Assembly (NCBI GenBank): GCA_002366835.1 | Contig: DFBZ01000060.1 | Location: 83,011 to 147,010, forward strand | Direction: 5' to 3' | DNA: 64,000 nt | Origin: Gammaproteobacteria bacterium UBA3067 | Lineage (GTDB): Bacteria > Pseudomonadota > Gammaproteobacteria > Pseudomonadales > UBA3067 | Shown here: positions 1,993 to 60,414 of the stretch, in pieces | Numbering within the stretch: the first letter of the stretch is position 1 | Layout: each line of letters opens with the position of its first letter | Made by a program: the position numbers and the translations under genes | The notes under the pieces: generated by a model | What the model saw: the letters and a program-made list of their open reading frames with translations, nothing else | What the model was told of the DNA's origin: nothing | The model's database searches: none

Positions 1993-2139
1993 CTAGCAGG
2001 CTGTTAAAATTCGCTGAGTTGAGCCAGATACAAGGAAAAATTAAGCGAAAAAGCGGAGTTTACACCTGTAAATGAGCACTTTGAGCGCGATTTTTACGCT
2101 GTAGATGGCCAAGTCAGTAGAATTTCAACAACCTGCTAG
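1993..2139. repeat. Structured intergenic repeat, copy A (147 bp, MITE/ERIC-like, no ORF)
   Basis: Outer arms are CTAGCAGGCTGTTAAAATTC and GAATTTCAACAACCTGCTAG (18/20 complementary). Imperfect pairing extends to about 39 bp per arm. About 90% identical to copy B at 51018-51186. Confidence 0.85.
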
Positions 2140-3280: not shown

Positions 3281-3352
3281 ATCCTAGAAACCGCAGTTGA
3301 AGTACAAAATTCTGTACAAGCTCTTGCCGCACCCAACTGAGGCTTCTAGGAT
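3281..3352. repeat. Structured intergenic repeat, copy F (72 bp), same TIR family as 60248-60414
   Basis: Arms are ATCCTAGAAACCGCAGTTGA and CCAACTGAGGCTTCTAGGAT (17/20 complementary). The right arm's reverse complement matches the left arm of copy E at 18/20 positions. Lies upstream of asnS. Confidence 0.6.
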
Positions 3353-4795: not shown

Positions 4796-4873
4796 AGAGA
4801 ATGAAGACAAAGCGGTGAGCAAACGCGATTCCCGCTTTATTTTACAAAAAATCGAAACGATTCAGCGAGCTCT

Positions 4874-4994
4874 GTAACTATTCATATCGCGCTCAAATTT
4901 GCGCAGAACAAGGCGAAAGATGTGAGTTTATAAGTATAAATGATCATTTTTTAACACAATTATGTGCAAATTTGAGCGCGATATGAATAGTTAC
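4874..4994. repeat. Structured intergenic repeat, copy C (121 bp, 32-bp arms)
   Basis: Arms are GTAACTATTCATATCGCGCTCAAATTTGCGCA and TGTGCAAATTTGAGCGCGATATGAATAGTTAC (31/32 complementary). Lies between convergent asnS and the NlpC/P60 gene. The central 57 nt carries the core shared with copies A, B and E. Confidence 0.8.
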
Positions 4995-5000
4995 AAAAGA

Positions 5001-5510
5001 TTATAAGCGGCGGGCCACCCAGTAGGAGGATTTCCAGTAAGGGTTATCCAAACGCGAAACCGTTACGCCTTTGCTAGTAGAAGCATGTAAAAAACGCCCG
5101 TCACCCATATAAATTCCAACGTGACGAGTGAAAATAGCCGTTTTAAAAAATATCAGATCCCCCGCCTGGATATTTTTTTGGCGAATCGACTTACCCAGCG
5201 AGACCTGCAGCTCTGCAGTGCGTGGTAGGTTGATGGCAAATTTATCGCGAAATGTCAGCATGACAAAACCCGAACAATCCACGCCCGACTTTGACAAACC
5301 ACCTAAGCGGTAATTCACTCCACGCCAATGAGAATATTGCCCCCGAAGTCGAGATTCAATCTGTCTGGCATTTAAGTGAGTCCATTGTTCAACACCGTCT
5401 CCCCTTAGCTTTGGGCTACTCAAGGGCACGCAGCCAGAAAATAGAAGCAAAAAGAATAATAGCCTCCCTTTCCAGCTCACAATTACTTCCGATAAAAACT
5501 TAATAGTCAC
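5001..5510 (-). CDS. NlpC/P60 (C40) peptidoglycan endopeptidase lipoprotein
   Basis: Lipobox LFSGC. Catalytic Cys context GVDCSGFV, followed by HVGIYMGDGRFLHAS, as in Spr/MepS-type enzymes. Confidence 0.85.
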   Translation of the reverse strand: MTIKFLSEVIVSWKGRLLFFLLLFSGCVPLSSPKLRGDGVEQWTHLNARQIESRLRGQYSHWRGVNYRLGGLSKSGVDCSGFVMLTFRDKFAINLPRTAELQVSLGKSIRQKNIQAGDLIFFKTAIFTRHVGIYMGDGRFLHASTSKGVTVSRLDNPYWKSSYWVARRL

Positions 5511-26764: not shown

Positions 26765-29700
26765 TCAGGGCAGCTTGAAAAAAGGATCCAGATAATAGGC
26801 CCCCAAGCCGGAAGTCACATCTTTCTCCCACCAGATGTTAAACATATAGACCTCTTCTTCCCTATCCTCATCTGAATCAAAGTCTCCGCTGTCTGCCGTA
26901 ATACTCTCCAAAGAGTACATCTTAGGACTTGTTCCACCCAGATCAACACTGATGTAATCTGTCGTTAAGTCAATTGTCCACGCACCTGCTTCCTCAACAG
27001 AGCCGTTTGACAACCACTCATAGGTGTTAGGCGAGCCTTGAGCAAAGAGCATACGTTCCGTTTGACCCCATACGATTGCAAATTCCCCCACAATGTCTGC
27101 CTCTGCTGTGATATCAACACCATTCGCCGATTCTGCTATGAACGCATCGAAGGGAACGAGACGTAAAGTTAAATAAGAGAGATCCATCGCACCGTTTTGA
27201 ATCACCACCACCTCCGGATGATAAGTATCATTAAACTCAGCCAAGGCAATTTGGTGCTTATCACCGCTACTGGCAATAGTAATTTGCAGGTTTCCATCCC
27301 CATCCACCAACCATGTCATCGCTTCATCTATCGAACCATCATCAGCCCCGTTAGAAAGCAACTCTTGCTCACGCACCCATCGACCACCATCACCGCTGCC
27401 ATCAAACACGTAGTTATCAATAACGAAATGGATATCCGTAACAAACTCTCGTCCAATTCCAAAACCCGCCACACCAAAGCTGCTACCACTGGTTATTGTG
27501 CTATTGGCAGCAAAATCAACGCCGTTACCACTGGCTGCAAGAAATTCGGCAGGCAAAGGTGCTGGTGCCGTGTAGCTAAAGGCTGTTTTAAACTGATCCA
27601 GCGCAACAGTATTGAACATCAGATCCTGCTCAACCGATCCCGCTGCAAAGACGGCTCCGCTGCGAACAATATTTCCGTATCCACCGAGCTCAGTAATGGT
27701 ATCCACAAAGAAGAAATGCTTAAGATCGCCATCCTCAATATCAACATTACTTAGGTCAACCACTGCCTGCGGCGTAACGAACTCAACGACCTCTACGCCA
27801 CCTTTGTGTATCACTTCGTAGCTAACGGTAATACCTGTGTCGACATAGGAGTTTTTGTAGAAGCGCACCGTGGGGTTGGCCCCAGCCACCGTACCATCGC
27901 TTGAAACAAGGTAAGCATTAACGTCATATTCATTACTACCATCATTGCCACGACCGACCCATATACCCACTCCATTACCGTTAGCTGGGTCGAAACTGGC
28001 AGAGCTGCTTATAATGTCACTCAATGTGGTTGCCGGCACAGGCTCCCAGTTACCACTGCCAACAGGCTTTTCTAACTGGTCTACGGGCACAATACCTTCG
28101 CAGGAAAGTCCCGTTTCATCAAACCAGTCATCCCAACGACTCCAGTTATTGTCACACCAAAAAATATAGGCCTCAGCAGTATTACTTTCGCTTGCTAGGT
28201 AAGCTCGCGCACCTGTGGCAAAGGAGGGGTTTCCAGGAAGGCCATCTGCAAAATTACCGTCGAGAATATCCAGCATGATCCTGTCTTCAATGTTGTATTC
28301 CTCAAGGTCTACATGCCTTATTAGGTGATCAACAATTACTCCAGATTTTGTTAATTTCAGAACAGCCGTTTCAGGTGCTGCGGCATAACCATCAATTTGT
28401 AATATGTCGTCGGCAATATCTACATCTCCACTGCTGCTCAGATAACCTTCTTCGCCCACCGCATTCGCTGTTGAGTCGACCCATACCGTATCGATCTCAT
28501 CCCAGGAGAACTGGGTTTCCAGAGCATCGGAAATAACTCCGTATTTAAAACCCCAGTCTCTATCAGCTTCCAGCCAAACAATGCCACTGGCACCAATGGG
28601 CTGCTCTCTGACGTCTACTGGCAGGGTCGCACTGACGTTAAATATTGCCGTACACGCTGAGCCGCCAGTATTCGTATTGCCGGTCCAAGTTCCGGTAAAT
28701 TTGCCAGCGCCCTCGCTGAATGTTCCGGTAAAGCTGTCTGAAACATTAGCCGTAGCATCCACGCCCGAAAAGGTAAAAGTGCCATCAGGCTGTATGGTTC
28801 CTGTGTATAGCCAGTCATCATTCATGTTACTAACGGTCAGAGCAGTACCAACCTGTTCAAACTGCCAGAACTCGGAACCGCTTTCACCAACAACACTCAG
28901 GCAACTACTACTGTCGACATCCCACTCGGTGCCCGAATCAGCACTGTAGTCTTGCAGGTAAATACCGCTCATGTCAGGGATTGCTGCTTCACAGGCATCG
29001 CCTATGCCATCGCCGTCATCAACACCGTTGGTATCTAGCTGATCTGAGTTAGAAACTAAAGGACAGTTATCAGTAGCATCACCGACGGTATCGCTGTCGG
29101 TATCTTCATTAAACGGGTCGGTGCCTAGACCTAGCTCATCAACATCCAACACGCTATCGTTGTCGTCATCGGCATCACAGGCATCGCCTTCGGTATCACC
29201 GTCGTTGTTAACCTGGTTAGTATTGGCAATCTCTGGGCAGTTATCCAGATCATCAATCACTGTGTCTAAGTCAGTGTCCAATTCACATGCATCGCCTATG
29301 CTATTTGAGTTCAAATCAGCTTGATCTGCATTAGCTGTAAATTGACAGTTATCAGGGGCAGCATCCAGCACGCCATCATTGTCATCATCGGTATCACAGG
29401 CATCACCTTCGGCGTCGCCGTCGTTGTTAGCCTGATCGGTGTTTGCATCAACCGAGCAGTTATCACCATTGTCGCCCACGGTATCGCTGTCGGTATCAAC
29501 TGTTTCAGCTGGATCTGCTGGGAAGGCATCAGCATTATCACCCACGCCATCGCTGTCAGTATCCGTAGTTTCAGCCGGGTCTGCTGGGAAGGCATCGGCG
29601 TTATCACCTACACCATCACTGTCGGTATCAGTTGTTTCAGTCGGATTTACCGGGAAAGCATCGGCGTTATCACCTACACCATCGCTGTCGGTATCTGCAG

Positions 29701-31696
29701 TTTCAGCTGGATCTGCTGGGAAGGCATCAGCATTATCACCCACGCCATCGCTGTCGGTATCCGCAGTTTCAGTCGGATCTACCGGGAAGGCATCGGCATT
29801 ATCACCCATACCATCGCTGTCGGTGTCCGCAGTTTCAGCTGGATCGGCTGGGAAAGCATCAGCATTATCACCCACGCCATCGCTGTCGGTATCCGCAGTT
29901 TCAGTTGGATCTGCTGGGAAGGCATCAGCATTATCACCCACGCCATCGCTGTCAGTATCCGTAGTTTCAGCCGGGTCTGTTGGGAAGGCATCTGAATTGT
30001 TGCCCACGGTGTCGCTATCTGTATCTAGGGCCTCTAAAGGGTCGGTGGGGAATTGATCTACACCATCAGAAAAACCATCCGAGTCTGTATCCCACAGTAA
30101 AGGATCAGTTCCATCCAAACCTTCCTGGGTATCAGAAACACCGTCTCCATCTTTGTCGGTGTCACTGTTATCGCCTATATTATCACCATCCAAATCGCTG
30201 TCTTCGGCACTATCCAAGGGAAACAAATCATCTACATCGAGCACACTGTCCTCATCATCATCGCCATCACAGACATCACCACCGTCGCCTAAACCATCGG
30301 TGTTCAGCTGGTCAGGGTTAGCGTTCAATGGACAGTTATCTGTACCGTCATTGATAACGCCATCGCCGTCGGCATCGTTTGAGCAGGCATCGCCTTCGCC
30401 ATTCGCATCCGTATCTATTTGATCCGTATTGGCAGCCAATGGACAGTTATCAACTCCGTTATTTATAGTATCGGAATCACGATCCAGGGCTGGATCTAAA
30501 AAGGCACTGTTATCAAGGGGGTAGTCATCATCATTATCCGCCCAACCGTCATTATCGTCATCAGTGTCGGCATTGTTACCAATAAAGTCTCCATCCGTAT
30601 CAAGCTGTTCGGCTGGATCTTCTGGAAACGCGTCATCAGCATTTAGCACTGAGTCGCCGTCAAGATCAGAGTTTGTTTCTGCTGGCTCTGACTCCACATT
30701 AATCGTGTCAAGCGCGGTAGTGTCTGTTGTTTCTCCAGTAACGGTAGTTTCGTCTCGCAACTCTTGCTCAATATCAGCAACCAGAATAGTCGTGTTAGGA
30801 ATGGTCAAAGTTGCTGGATCCTGGCTTAACACGTCTAGTGCAGGTGCTTCGTAGACCGTACTCGCAACTCCACCGACGGTTCCATCAATTTCACCATCGG
30901 CCAAATCATTGGCCAGCTCAGTTAAAATTTCACCTGTATCACCAGTAACAGATAACTTTTGCATCTCATAAGCTATAGCCGTTAATGCTTCTATAGCAGT
31001 TCGGTATGCGGCCACGGAAGCCTGCTCTTCTGTTGTGTCAGTCGTACTGTCAATCAAAGGAGGCGTATCAAAAATATCAACCGTTTCATCCAAACCAAAA
31101 CCCATGGTGGATTTGACCTGAGAAGCAGCGGTAAGCAAGGCGGCTTCAAAAGAAGCGCCATCAAGCGAAGCTGGGTCTGCAATGGCAATATCCACCGCCA
31201 TGGTTGTCAGCGGTGTTGCATAAATCTGTTCACCGGAATCCAGCAATGCCTGGGTTACCACCGTTCGCATAGTAGTGATAACAGGCGCCAGACCTGTAGT
31301 AATGTCGGTTGTATCAGTATCGGAGGTAACTTCTAGAATATAAGGAGGGGCCAAAGGAAAAGCTAAAGATAGATTCTGTATCTGCGCCTGTGCATTGGTA
31401 GAGCCGCTTCCTGCAACACTGCCTTTCATTCCAGGCCCTGATGGTTCAATGTTGTAGACAGTCACCACGGCGTTGGCCAGCGGCCCTTTAATGCCACCCC
31501 CTGTTAGTGCGAGTGTCGCGGTATCGGCGTTGGTATTACCGCCAGTATTATTCGTACCGTTTTCTTCTGCAGCAGGATCATTGCGGTGCGAATCGCTACA
31601 CCCTGCGAAAAAAGAAAGCAGCACTAGATAAGTAATTACGTGAACCAGACTGCGGGTTGGTACACATTGAGCTAGGCGCATTATAAATCCCCTCAC
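26765..31696 (-). CDS. Giant (1643 aa) surface lipoprotein with thrombospondin type-3 (TSP3) Ca-binding repeats and an uncharacterised ~780-aa C-terminal region
   Basis: Lipobox LSFFAGC followed by S. Dozens of DxDxDGxxDxxD motifs, both the cysteine-containing form (DNCPLxxNxDQxDxDxDGxGDAC) and a Cys-free form (DTDSDGVGDNADAFPADP). Confidence 0.8.
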   Translation of the reverse strand: MRGFIMRLAQCVPTRSLVHVITYLVLLSFFAGCSDSHRNDPAAEENGTNNTGGNTNADTATLALTGGGIKGPLANAVVTVYNIEPSGPGMKGSVAGSGSTNAQAQIQNLSLAFPLAPPYILEVTSDTDTTDITTGLAPVITTMRTVVTQALLDSGEQIYATPLTTMAVDIAIADPASLDGASFEAALLTAASQVKSTMGFGLDETVDIFDTPPLIDSTTDTTEEQASVAAYRTAIEALTAIAYEMQKLSVTGDTGEILTELANDLADGEIDGTVGGVASTVYEAPALDVLSQDPATLTIPNTTILVADIEQELRDETTVTGETTDTTALDTINVESEPAETNSDLDGDSVLNADDAFPEDPAEQLDTDGDFIGNNADTDDDNDGWADNDDDYPLDNSAFLDPALDRDSDTINNGVDNCPLAANTDQIDTDANGEGDACSNDADGDGVINDGTDNCPLNANPDQLNTDGLGDGGDVCDGDDDEDSVLDVDDLFPLDSAEDSDLDGDNIGDNSDTDKDGDGVSDTQEGLDGTDPLLWDTDSDGFSDGVDQFPTDPLEALDTDSDTVGNNSDAFPTDPAETTDTDSDGVGDNADAFPADPTETADTDSDGVGDNADAFPADPAETADTDSDGMGDNADAFPVDPTETADTDSDGVGDNADAFPADPAETADTDSDGVGDNADAFPVNPTETTDTDSDGVGDNADAFPADPAETTDTDSDGVGDNADAFPADPAETVDTDSDTVGDNGDNCSVDANTDQANNDGDAEGDACDTDDDNDGVLDAAPDNCQFTANADQADLNSNSIGDACELDTDLDTVIDDLDNCPEIANTNQVNNDGDTEGDACDADDDNDSVLDVDELGLGTDPFNEDTDSDTVGDATDNCPLVSNSDQLDTNGVDDGDGIGDACEAAIPDMSGIYLQDYSADSGTEWDVDSSSCLSVVGESGSEFWQFEQVGTALTVSNMNDDWLYTGTIQPDGTFTFSGVDATANVSDSFTGTFSEGAGKFTGTWTGNTNTGGSACTAIFNVSATLPVDVREQPIGASGIVWLEADRDWGFKYGVISDALETQFSWDEIDTVWVDSTANAVGEEGYLSSSGDVDIADDILQIDGYAAAPETAVLKLTKSGVIVDHLIRHVDLEEYNIEDRIMLDILDGNFADGLPGNPSFATGARAYLASESNTAEAYIFWCDNNWSRWDDWFDETGLSCEGIVPVDQLEKPVGSGNWEPVPATTLSDIISSSASFDPANGNGVGIWVGRGNDGSNEYDVNAYLVSSDGTVAGANPTVRFYKNSYVDTGITVSYEVIHKGGVEVVEFVTPQAVVDLSNVDIEDGDLKHFFFVDTITELGGYGNIVRSGAVFAAGSVEQDLMFNTVALDQFKTAFSYTAPAPLPAEFLAASGNGVDFAANSTITSGSSFGVAGFGIGREFVTDIHFVIDNYVFDGSGDGGRWVREQELLSNGADDGSIDEAMTWLVDGDGNLQITIASSGDKHQIALAEFNDTYHPEVVVIQNGAMDLSYLTLRLVPFDAFIAESANGVDITAEADIVGEFAIVWGQTERMLFAQGSPNTYEWLSNGSVEEAGAWTIDLTTDYISVDLGGTSPKMYSLESITADSGDFDSDEDREEEVYMFNIWWEKDVTSGLGAYYLDPFFKLP
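29475..30046 (-). repeat. In-frame 66-bp tandem repeat, about 8.5 units (22-aa unit DTDSDGVGDNADAFPADPAETA)
   Basis: Units begin at 29475, 29541, 29607, 29673, 29739, 29805, 29871 and 29937, an exact 66-bp phase. Most are roughly 85-95% identical at the nucleotide level by eye. Confidence 0.9.
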
Positions 31697-37259: not shown

Positions 37260-37310
37260 CACTTAAGCTTGCCGTCTCACTGTTCAGGTTTGGAAGAAGG
37301 CGAATTATCC

Positions 37311-37781
37311 ATGATATCAGCAGACACCTTAATGCAACTCGCTATCGATGCGGCAAAACAGGGAATCACCAGAGGTCAAAGCCCCTTTGGCTGCGCTATC
37401 GCCATTGGTGAAAGGGTCATCACCGCCACCCATAATCATGTATTAGCGCATACGGATATCACCGCCCACGCGGAAATACATGCCTTGCGCTTGGCTTGCA
37501 AAGAAGAGAATAGTATTTTTCTTGAGAATGCGCATGTCGCCGCCACCTGCGAGCCCTGCCCCATGTGTATGGCCGCGCTCCATTGGGCACGGGTCGATAC
37601 CGTCTACTACGGTGCCAGCATCTCTGATGCAGAAAAGGCCGGGTTTAATGAGTTGAATGTGCCTGCCCAGCAATTGCTACAACTAGGGAATAGCCCTGTA
37701 AAACTCATTAAGAACATTCGCCAGGAAGATTGCAAAGCGCTGTTTACCGAATGGCGTCACAACACGCCAATGCCTTACTAA
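37311..37781 (+). CDS. CDA-fold zinc deaminase, guanine deaminase (GuaD)-like
   Basis: TAHAEIHALRLACKE and CEPCPMCMAALHWARVDTVYYGASISDAEKAGFNE (H-A-E / PCxxC zinc site). The tail resembles B. subtilis GuaD more than TadA. The ATG at 37311 is chosen over the TTG ORF opening at 37269. Confidence 0.7.
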   Translation: MISADTLMQLAIDAAKQGITRGQSPFGCAIAIGERVITATHNHVLAHTDITAHAEIHALRLACKEENSIFLENAHVAATCEPCPMCMAALHWARVDTVYYGASISDAEKAGFNELNVPAQQLLQLGNSPVKLIKNIRQEDCKALFTEWRHNTPMPY

Positions 37782-37805: not shown

Positions 37806-37947
37806 AGGGCACCTCTAAAAATTGCCTTTTTACCCGATAGCGGCGTCAGTTCCATACTCAACTCCTCATGTAGCCCTTGTACACTGAGGGTTTCCGTGCG
37901 GTGCTTCCTTGCTCTCGAATAAAAGATCTAATTTTTAGAGATGCCCT
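37806..37947. repeat. Structured intergenic repeat, copy D (142 bp, 18-bp arms)
   Basis: Arms are AGGGCACCTCTAAAAATT and AATTTTTAGAGATGCCCT (17/18 complementary), separated by 106 bp. Fills the gap between convergent genes. Confidence 0.6.
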
Positions 37948-37953
37948 TGATGA

Positions 37954-38745
37954 TCAAATAGCCAAAGCAAGCCGGTTTAAACCATTACTTTTAATAATAC
38001 TGCGTATAGCGAGCACATAGCTTTTACCCATTTCCGAATAGCTGCTTAGGCCATCGGCGAGCTCTTCGCCGGAAACCACTTGGTTTTTCAACGTATACTG
38101 ATGACGCAGCTCACGTAAGCGAGCATAGGCAGGATGACTGTTGATGTTTTTCATATAAGCCCGCACCGATTCAGCCGGGCTGGCAAAGCGGCGCACTTCA
38201 TGGTTTTTACCTTCTGCTCGGTTCTTAGGCACTAGGCCACAACCCCTCTTAAAGCACCACTGCCCAAAGTAATTATTGATTTCGCTAGCAAACCTGGATG
38301 TCCCCCAAGAGCTTTCCATTGCAGCCTGCGCCAAAATCAAATCAGCGGGCAAAACATCCACATGAAGTAACAGTGCCTCAACCAGCTGCCGCTCATCTAA
38401 GCCATTAGCTCCCACACGGTATTCCTCGGCCAACCTTGCCAGAAAAACACGATCATACTCCGCCAGGGAGGCTTTCCTTGTCATTAACAAAAGCGTGGCC
38501 CGTTCCGCGAGAACAGCATTATTTTCCCGTTTAATGAGGGGCAACAAAGATTGAATAAAGCGCTGTTTGCGCCCAGACAAAGCAGGAGCTATCTCTTGAG
38601 AAACATTTAATTCAGCATGACTTGATTTTTCCCGGTTATCTGGCAGCGCCTTGGCATAAGCCGGCTTCCCCCCCAAATAGAACCCACCTACACTCAATAC
38701 CGAAACTCCCAGCAGAGACGCAGTAAAGATAAGCTTATACAGCAT
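37954..38745 (-). CDS. Bax-like glucosaminidase-domain protein
   Basis: N-terminal membrane anchor. ILAQAAMESSWGTSRFASEINNYFGQWCF matches the mannosyl-glycoprotein endo-beta-N-acetylglucosaminidase (FlgJ/Bax) motif. Confidence 0.7.
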   Translation of the reverse strand: MLYKLIFTASLLGVSVLSVGGFYLGGKPAYAKALPDNREKSSHAELNVSQEIAPALSGRKQRFIQSLLPLIKRENNAVLAERATLLLMTRKASLAEYDRVFLARLAEEYRVGANGLDERQLVEALLLHVDVLPADLILAQAAMESSWGTSRFASEINNYFGQWCFKRGCGLVPKNRAEGKNHEVRRFASPAESVRAYMKNINSHPAYARLRELRHQYTLKNQVVSGEELADGLSSYSEMGKSYVLAIRSIIKSNGLNRLALAI

Positions 38746-39312: not shown

Positions 39313-39327
39313 ATTGCTGAATAAATA

Positions 39328-39349
39328 ATCCTAGAAACCGCAGTAGGAT
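39328..39349. repeat. Minimal 22-bp derivative (copy G) of the copy-F/E repeat
   Basis: ATAATCCTAGAAACCGCAGT at 39325-39344 is identical over 20 nt to 3278-3297. It then jumps directly to the right end, ...TAGGATAA. Confidence 0.5.
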
Positions 39350-51017: not shown

Positions 51018-51186
51018 CTAGCAGGCTGTTGAAATTCGCTGAATTGAGTCAGATATAAGGCAAAATCAAGCGAAAAAGCGGAGTTTACACGTGTAAATGA
51101 GTACTTTGAGTGCGATTTTACCGAGAGTAGGCGCCTTAAGCGACGCAGTAGATGGCCAAGTCAGTAGAATTTCAACAGCCTGCTAG
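51018..51186. repeat. Structured intergenic repeat, copy B (169 bp)
   Basis: Perfect 20-bp arms CTAGCAGGCTGTTGAAATTC and GAATTTCAACAGCCTGCTAG. About 90% identical to copy A, plus a ~22-nt internal insertion (CGAGAGTAGGCGCCTTAAGCGA). Confidence 0.85.
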
Positions 51187-60247: not shown

Positions 60248-60414
60248 AACCTAGAAACCTCAGTTGGGCGCGAAAAAGATGTGCAAGATATTGGCGTGAA
60301 TAGGGAATTTTAAAAATTCGTGTTCACCTTATTGGTGATGAGAACTTTTTAAAATTTTCTAGATGCGTCAAGGGCTTGTACAGACTTTCGTGATCCAACT
60401 GAGGTTTTTAGGTT
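60248..60414. repeat. Structured intergenic repeat, copy E (167 bp, 20-bp arms)
   Basis: Arms are AACCTAGAAACCTCAGTTGG and CCAACTGAGGTTTTTAGGTT (19/20 complementary). The arms are related to copies F and G. The interior carries the GCGAAAAAGATGTG... core shared with A, B and C. Lies in the divergent fliL-like/dsbB promoter region. Confidence 0.7.

Follow-up and report, generated by a model that had tools for sequence, protein, structure and literature searches.

A palindromic hairpin core probably shared by intergenic MITEs with different transposon ends in Gammaproteobacteria

Three long imperfect palindromes in the 64,000-nt stretch of DNA analyzed here (the window) share a central core, and it is likely that these copies, A, B, and C, are modular MITEs of two end classes carrying a homologous central hairpin module of ~55-75 nt, with a single-strand hairpin that is kept in propagating lineages. 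MITEs are a well-known kind of element and the ends of the A-type copies match a described family; what is unusual is one core shared by different transposon ends. The first-pass annotation had described a conserved centre within differing closing helices, which holds for A and B compared to C, and had proposed a structured-RNA family rather than a simple MITE. The latter proposal is contradicted by terminal inverted repeats, target-site duplications, and empty or decayed sites in relatives, and the alternative it had offered, modular or nested repeat assembly, is nearest to the data. The features of the three copies are as follows:

4874..4994, + strand: copy C, a C-type MITE, short-form body GTAACTATTCAT...ATGAATAGTTAC, a 121-nt hairpin
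4912..4950, + strand: shared core in C, with the apical palindrome TTTATAAGTATAAA at 4927-4940
4854..4873, + strand: degenerate outer 5' module of the long form at C, GAAACGATTCAGCGAGCTCT, by comparison with L003, L018, and other long-form copies
4846..4853, + strand: possible left copy of a degenerate 8-bp target duplication of C, AAAAAATC; candidate right copy at 4995-5002, AAAAGATT, 6/8 identical
4809..4845, + strand: terminator-like hairpin and U-run 3' of asnS, upstream of C; context, outside the element
1997..2135, + strand: copy A, an A-type MITE of 139 nt, CAGGCTGTTAAAATTC...GAATTTCAACAACCTG, which aligns with 19 A-type copies
1993..1996: left copy of the CTAG target duplication of A; right copy at 2136-2139
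2044..2082, + strand: shared core in A, with the apical palindrome TTTACACCTGTAAA
51022..51182, + strand: copy B, an A-type MITE of 161 nt
51018..51021: left copy of the CTAG target duplication of B; right copy at 51183-51186
51069..51107, + strand: shared core in B, with the apical palindrome TTTACACGTGTAAA

The core GCGAAAnnnnnGAGTTTAYAnnTRTAAATGA, which can also be written GCGAAAnnnnnGAG-TTTAYA-nn-TRTAAA-TGA, is common to copies A, B, and C and constitutes the exact apex of each palindrome. RNA-fold z-scores for the palindromes were -8.0 (A), -6.9 (B), and -12.4 (C); the 36-nt arms of copy C are 94% complementary, with a fold energy of -63.6 kcal/mol, and this copy aligns over its full length with 56 copies found in other genomes. 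Two core-derived patterns matched only A, B, and C in the 64 kb, against 0.12-0.17 matches expected, a test that is not independent, as both patterns were made from these copies themselves. To provide an independent test of the window copies, covariance model R1 was trained solely on C-type copies from other genomes. This model scored copy C at 129.7 bits on the + strand and 72 bits on the - strand (+ better by 58 bits), copy A at 35.3 bits (E 2e-6), and copy B at 25.8 bits (E 5.5e-4). The sequences that the first-pass annotation gave for the three copies were thus found in place, and the core it saw in them is supported by R1. A further string that it reported as common to A and C, TTTGAGCGCGAT, is present in both, but occupies non-homologous positions in the two family alignments, and its occurrence in A and C appears inseparable from chance or local recombination.

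We also scanned public genomes, one genome per species, with the pattern GCGAAANNNNNGAGTTTANANNTNTAAA. Among the matches listed, the core was present at >115 loci in ~45 genomes, with at least 10 loci in several of them; because the listing is a lower bound and the pattern demanded the core, these counts under-represent relatives that lack it, as well as the full variety of end types. The derivation of the first patterns from the copies themselves would be compatible with the likeness of the A and C cores being chance, or a local recombination artifact of this genome, but this explanation is refuted by the recurrence of the same core at these loci of other genomes, with both end types, and by the ability of a model built without A-type sequences to find A and B.

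The core module is widespread in Gammaproteobacteria. Hosts include Methylococcales (among them sponge symbionts), Thiotrichaceae, Chromatiaceae, Thiomicrorhabdus, Granulosicoccus, Candidatus Endobugula, Cellvibrionaceae, Marinomonas, Halomonas, Billgrantia, Stutzerimonas stutzeri, Nitrosomonas europaea, and two Desulfobacteraceae bins, and BLAST searches detected A-type copies on plasmids of Pseudomonas amygdali, P. tremae, and P. veronii, as well as in Halomonas sp. PA16-9. The conserved centre has the consensus CAAGGCGAAAAATGTGAGTTTACAnGTGTAAATGATCATTTTTTAACGC and is flanked by arms that vary between lineages yet remain complementary. The elements are small (121-173 nt), non-coding, multi-copy, and solely intergenic, with 0/122 cores inside an ORF. 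No copy was found in viral contigs, and a half-match in Phyllobacterium, which falls inside an ORF, was dismissed as chance.

Two other regions of the window, E and H, had been put forward as carrying the core, and neither proved to be within 3 mismatches of it. Model R1 gave the E region 11.2 bits (E 2.7), level with unrelated hairpins, and did not match H. Short strings in the long E-type insert (GCGAAAAAGATGTG ... ATGAGAACTTTTT, found in L128 as well) do recur in the outer helix of the core, but E has a different apex and its membership lacks statistical support. Copy E represents a second repeat family, with ends CCTAGAAACCnCAGTTG...CAACTGnGGTTTCTAGG and two forms, a short one of ~68 nt and a long one in which ~95 nt are inserted internally, found at the following sites:

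60250..60412, + strand: copy E, not a member of the core family; a different CTAG-bordered palindromic repeat with a ~95-nt internal insertion
3283-3350: short copy of the second repeat family
39325-39345: fragment of the second repeat family
L128, 1276-1479: site of the second repeat family in a relative

A long copy of this second family occupies the B locus of the close relative L128. In the long E-type insert, the start (GCGAAAAA.A.GTG) and the end (ATGAGA..TTTTT) faintly resemble the outer helix of the core. Elsewhere in the window, an unrelated inverted repeat at 37806-37947, with 18-nt arms that are 94% complementary and lie 106 nt apart, sits between the convergent ORFs 37269-37781 (+) and 37954-38745 (-), and a 1643-aa ORF at 26765-31696 (-) contains at least 9 tandem repeats of 66 nt (22 aa) at ~29300-30150 (GATACCGACAGCGAT...), rich in Asp, Gly, and Ser codons.

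Comparison with relatives revealed insertion polymorphism at the window loci. At the B locus, L128 (95% identity in the flanking HAD gene) carries one CTAG without any element, constituting a precise empty site (...TTCTG-CTAG-[B]-CTAG-AAAAGCCCTGTGGTTT in the window versus ...TTCTG-CTAG-AATCGGCCTGTGGTTT in L128), with an E-type element a few bases downstream. Copy A is absent from the relatives L123 and L126 (NlpC 89% and 84% identical, respectively). At the C site, the 89% relative, L123, has kept the element and lost 53 nt that include the core, and in the 84% relative, L126, the outer 5' module alone is left. The target duplication of copy C is degenerate, and an alternative pairing places one copy of it at 4856-4863 (AAACGATT, 7/8 identical). 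Copy C is an old insertion, shared with both L123 and L126 and decaying in these sister lineages. These comparisons show that the elements are mobile and that resident copies drift and decay after insertion.

Several additional observations were made on individual copies. The remnant in L126 (4453-4539, the orthologue of window 4796-5000) consists of the outer 5' module GAAACGATTCAGCGTACCTTTAAC joined to the right flank, and may be the footprint of short-form excision from a long-form copy. In L002, an SRA assembly of the same organism from short reads, the contig starts after a break ~25 nt past copy C, at window position 5020, which fits a repeat disrupting assembly. Relative to A, copy B has a private 22-nt insertion at 51121-51142 (CCGAGAGTAGGCGCCTTAAGCG), and close to that position a 16-nt insertion is found in L121, a copy from Halomonas. 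The arms of copy C pair at 34/36 positions, even where the family consensus has a mismatch or G-U, and carry unique paired changes (CATATCG/CGATATG compared to CAGATTG/GAGCTGA in the family), as though one arm had served as the template for the other.

The A-type copies have terminal inverted repeats of 10-20 nt, and the duplicated target at their borders is CTAG (A, B, and P. amygdali), CTAA (Nitrosomonas), or TTAA (P. veronii). One A-type subfamily has GAGACC ends and 5-nt duplications (TTATA, TATTA). MITEPsy1 from Pseudomonas syringae pv. phaseolicola is an IS5-family, ISPsy2-related MITE, with the terminal repeat GGAAGGTCTGAAAAAGCC, that duplicates CTAG or YTAA and for which transposition has been demonstrated experimentally (PMC3189936). 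MITEPsy1 and the A-type are alike in the type of terminal repeat (compare GGAAGGTCTGAAAAAGCC with, for example, GGAACCTCTGAAAAACG and GGTCTGTACGAAAAGTCG of the A-type), in insertion at CTAG/YTAA with a 4-nt duplication, and in being small and devoid of an ORF. In contrast, MITEPsy1 is 100 nt in length and its interior (L122, 16480-16579) lacks the core, whereas the A-type is 139-165 nt with a conserved interior of ~110 nt. An IS630-family element was considered as the mobilizer of the A-type and rejected, since the copy on plasmid pCOR2250 of P. amygdali has merely inserted into the TA of the bordering CTAG; this element (L118, 1830-3002) lies upstream of the coronafacic acid gene cluster.

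The C-type has the ends GTAACTnnTCAG...CTGAnTAGTTAC (GTAAC...GTTAC), with GTAACTnnTCAG/CTGAnnAGTTAC as the inverted-repeat pair; an IS with these ends would be bounded by GTAACTACTCAGC...GCTGAGTAGTTAC. Many copies have an extra 5' module with a second GTAACTACTCAGCG repeat (GTAAC...TCAGCG), and in other genomes this outer 5' module of the long form reads GTAACnnnTCAGCGnnCTCT. The flanking 8-mers match at 7 or 8 of 8 positions in 47/67 copies scored, and at least 33 of the 8-bp duplications are perfect and lie directly outside GTAAC...GTTAC, at AT-rich targets (e.g., AATATAAC, GATTAAAG, and TATTGTTT). Core-less deletion derivatives of the C-type exist and are frequent. Immediately 3' of the apical hairpin, some C-type copies contain structured insertions (45-95 nt) that members of a lineage share, and in two copies from sponge symbionts a TTAGTC microsatellite replaces the 3' arm (copies listed for these insertions or the microsatellite are L019, L083, L109, L093, L041, and L070; L023, L084, and L100; and L006 and L104).

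As for the source of transposase for the C-type, IS66 has inverted repeats that begin GTAAGCG and produces 8-bp direct repeats (PMC11946415). The IS66 family and the C-type are therefore alike in the GTAA start and the 8-bp target duplication, but they differ in that IS66 continues as GTAAGCG and the C-type as GTAACTACTCAGC, with GTAA alone shared of the 7-nt signature. Based on these two shared traits, we infer that an IS66-like DDE transposase may mobilize the C-type in trans. The link to IS66 is put as an inference because searches for an autonomous partner were negative: neither an autonomous element with GTAAC ends nor an IS66-type transposase with C-type ends was present in the 0.9 Mb of loci searched or in plasmids. 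Lone GTAAC ends in L006, L054, and L092 turned out to be truncated copies without a transposase. A 1.8-kb DDE_5 IS near several Methylococcales copies was likewise rejected as the mobilizer, its ends (TAACTCGTCAGTCACGAGTT) being unrelated to those of the MITEs. This IS (L039, 2293-4105; also L026, L052, and L093) encodes a 480-aa transposase with a weak DDE_5 match, and four copies of it, >99% identical, are located near MITEs in one Methylococcales genome.

The same centre is thus found between IS5-like, GAGACC, and GTAAC ends, with duplications of 4, 5, and 8 nt, respectively, and backbones without the module are represented by MITEPsy1 and a short F-type repeat. One central module lies between the ends of at least two transposon classes, and probably three. 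BOX elements of Streptococcus pneumoniae are modular, with modules in tandem and no defined target duplications; the present elements resemble them in that a conserved module is combined with other modules, but differ in having one central module between transposon ends. ERIC, Correia (CREE), and REPIN sequences are similar to the A-type and C-type elements in being intergenic and multi-copy, ~100-170 nt in length, with long hairpins and internal indel variants. The elements had no match in E. coli, to ERIC or other E. coli repeats, and aligned no better than shuffles did (p 0.03-0.98) to a Correia sequence that was verified against the literature at its ends. REPINs, which are REP doublets with a conserved GTAG-type motif, are moved by RAYT enzymes and have no target duplication, in contrast with the fixed target duplications of the elements described here. 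In the searchable literature and Rfam, we found no description of the core module, of the GTAAC 8-bp class, or of one structured core across end classes and orders; literature searches by sequence strings returned nothing relevant, and those by keywords returned the MITEPsy1 and IS66 facts alone.

The pairing of the arms was analyzed in 57 C-type copies, for which RNAalifold predicted 41 pairs. A standard pair is present in 96.6% of cells, and 23/41 pairs change on both sides, compared to 15.3 +/- 1.4 in shuffles (0/500 reaching the observed value). Among the 20 copies of the A-type, 15/30 pairs change on both sides, again with 0/500 shuffles reaching the observed values. Sliding the partners lowers pairing (37-47% for the C-type; 32-47% over the C-type and A-type controls). 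At the apex, TTTACA..TGTAAA versus TTTATA..TATAAA is a true compensatory pair, which in the C-type family is CG in 45 copies, UA in 11, and UG in 1. The compensatory evolution of the arms that had been suggested from the window copies is therefore borne out in both types. Departures from Watson-Crick pairing are strongly biased in the C-type, with G-U:A-C ratios of 335:24 over all cells, 80:8 in subfamily consensuses, and 28:6 in the freely varying stem of those consensuses (p 2e-4); the bias is weaker in the A-type (40:11, or 20:11 minus an invariant G-U). In a duplex or cruciform, G-T and A-C would be equivalent, and the excess of G-U therefore implies that one particular single strand is kept folded. 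Additionally, the unpaired bases of the internal loop and core are conserved across orders.

These data bear directly on whether the core might be a double-stranded DNA site, either a palindromic operator or a site for a host factor such as IHF or Fis, with symmetric changes reflecting a dimeric protein. The apex TTTAYAnnTRTAAA is a near-perfect palindrome conserved in sequence, as such a site would be, and some known MITEs carry host-factor sites. However, a duplex site predicts equal G-T and A-C departures rather than 335:24, both Y-R variants occur in one genome (A and B versus C in the window), and the pairing spans ~40 positions of freely varying sequence, all of which make this explanation highly improbable.

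Covariation and a fold on one strand, as expected of a structured RNA family, are both present in these elements. Alternatively, the core itself could function as a structured RNA that the MITEs merely spread, be it a small RNA or a cis-acting mRNA element such as a hairpin for processing or stability, in which case the covariation would reflect selection on a transcript. Strong covariation in both types, the excess of G-U over A-C that marks one strand, the cross-order conservation of internal-loop bases, and the 58-bit advantage of the + strand for copy C all agree with this idea. On the other hand, orientation relative to flanking genes is random, with 25 sense and 25 antisense among tandem-gene contexts across the family (simple ORF calls), and the earlier impression that cores lie upstream of + strand genes in the same orientation as the gene is accordingly not general. 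Scans for promoter- and terminator-like signals within the elements found none above shuffles, and Rfam 15 contained no family at gathering score, the sole matches being generic hairpins with E 0.19 or worse. Copy C, moreover, lies downstream of the terminator-like hairpin of asnS (-12 kcal/mol, z -2.8, followed by UUUAUUUU), which is conserved in L123 and L126, and the core has been deleted at the orthologous C locus of the close relative L123; core-less derivatives are frequent. Finally, pairing is not conserved in resident copies: the rate of substitutions private to one copy is 1.0 per column among paired columns and 1.15 among unpaired ones, and private changes to Watson-Crick pairs yield GU in 19 cases, AC in 11, and other combinations in 18, so that no purifying selection on pairing in individual copies was detected from copy-private substitutions. 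Overall, we consider a structured RNA to be an unlikely explanation.

Given that pairing is kept in the lineages that spawn new copies and not in resident copies, it is probably a feature of propagation rather than of a host RNA gene, as the reading of A, B, and C as modular MITEs with a shared hairpin module would have it. In a mechanism of this kind, the whole element, in both types, is predicted to fold on the GCGAAA..GAGTTTACA strand to form a single long hairpin capped by the core, and this hairpin and its conserved apex would serve the element's own propagation and not a host function of each insertion. The folded single strand may juxtapose the two ends, or a conserved host factor may recognize the apex, a step in which our confidence is moderate. 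Pairing would also force both ends to change together, through which the module could gain new perfect terminal repeats and switch transposase. Several points count against this best explanation: the searches for an autonomous partner with GTAAC ends were negative, the IS66 link has two shared traits behind it, copy C of the window has a degenerate target duplication, strand-specific pairing is no expected requirement of cut-and-paste DDE transposition, and a function in RNA or in protein binding would likewise be compatible with the strong conservation of unpaired core bases across orders. Orientation relative to replication, with flank GC skew as a proxy, was 62:49, which is not significant.

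A more far-reaching possibility, and one that we hold only tentatively as somewhat doubtful, is that the module is a portable single-strand structure, RNA or ssDNA, that has become joined to at least three unrelated transposon end classes and is kept because it boosts the propagation or persistence of the MITEs that carry it. The cause would be either a host factor acting at the apex or a strand-specific folded transposition intermediate, and obligate pairing would lead the ends to co-evolve, allowing the transposase to be switched.

The finding raises the question of whether a strand-specific folded intermediate or a host factor is needed by some DDE-mobilized MITEs. For annotation, this repeat, which fragments short-read assemblies and is scattered through the intergenic DNA of many marine and symbiotic Gammaproteobacteria, now has a named model, with which annotators can avoid taking its hairpins for small RNAs, terminators, or candidate riboswitches. 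Moreover, a core conserved across orders inside different transposon ends, with pairing kept between subfamilies and not in resident copies, gives a clear-cut natural example in which selection acts on the lineage of the element and not on the host.
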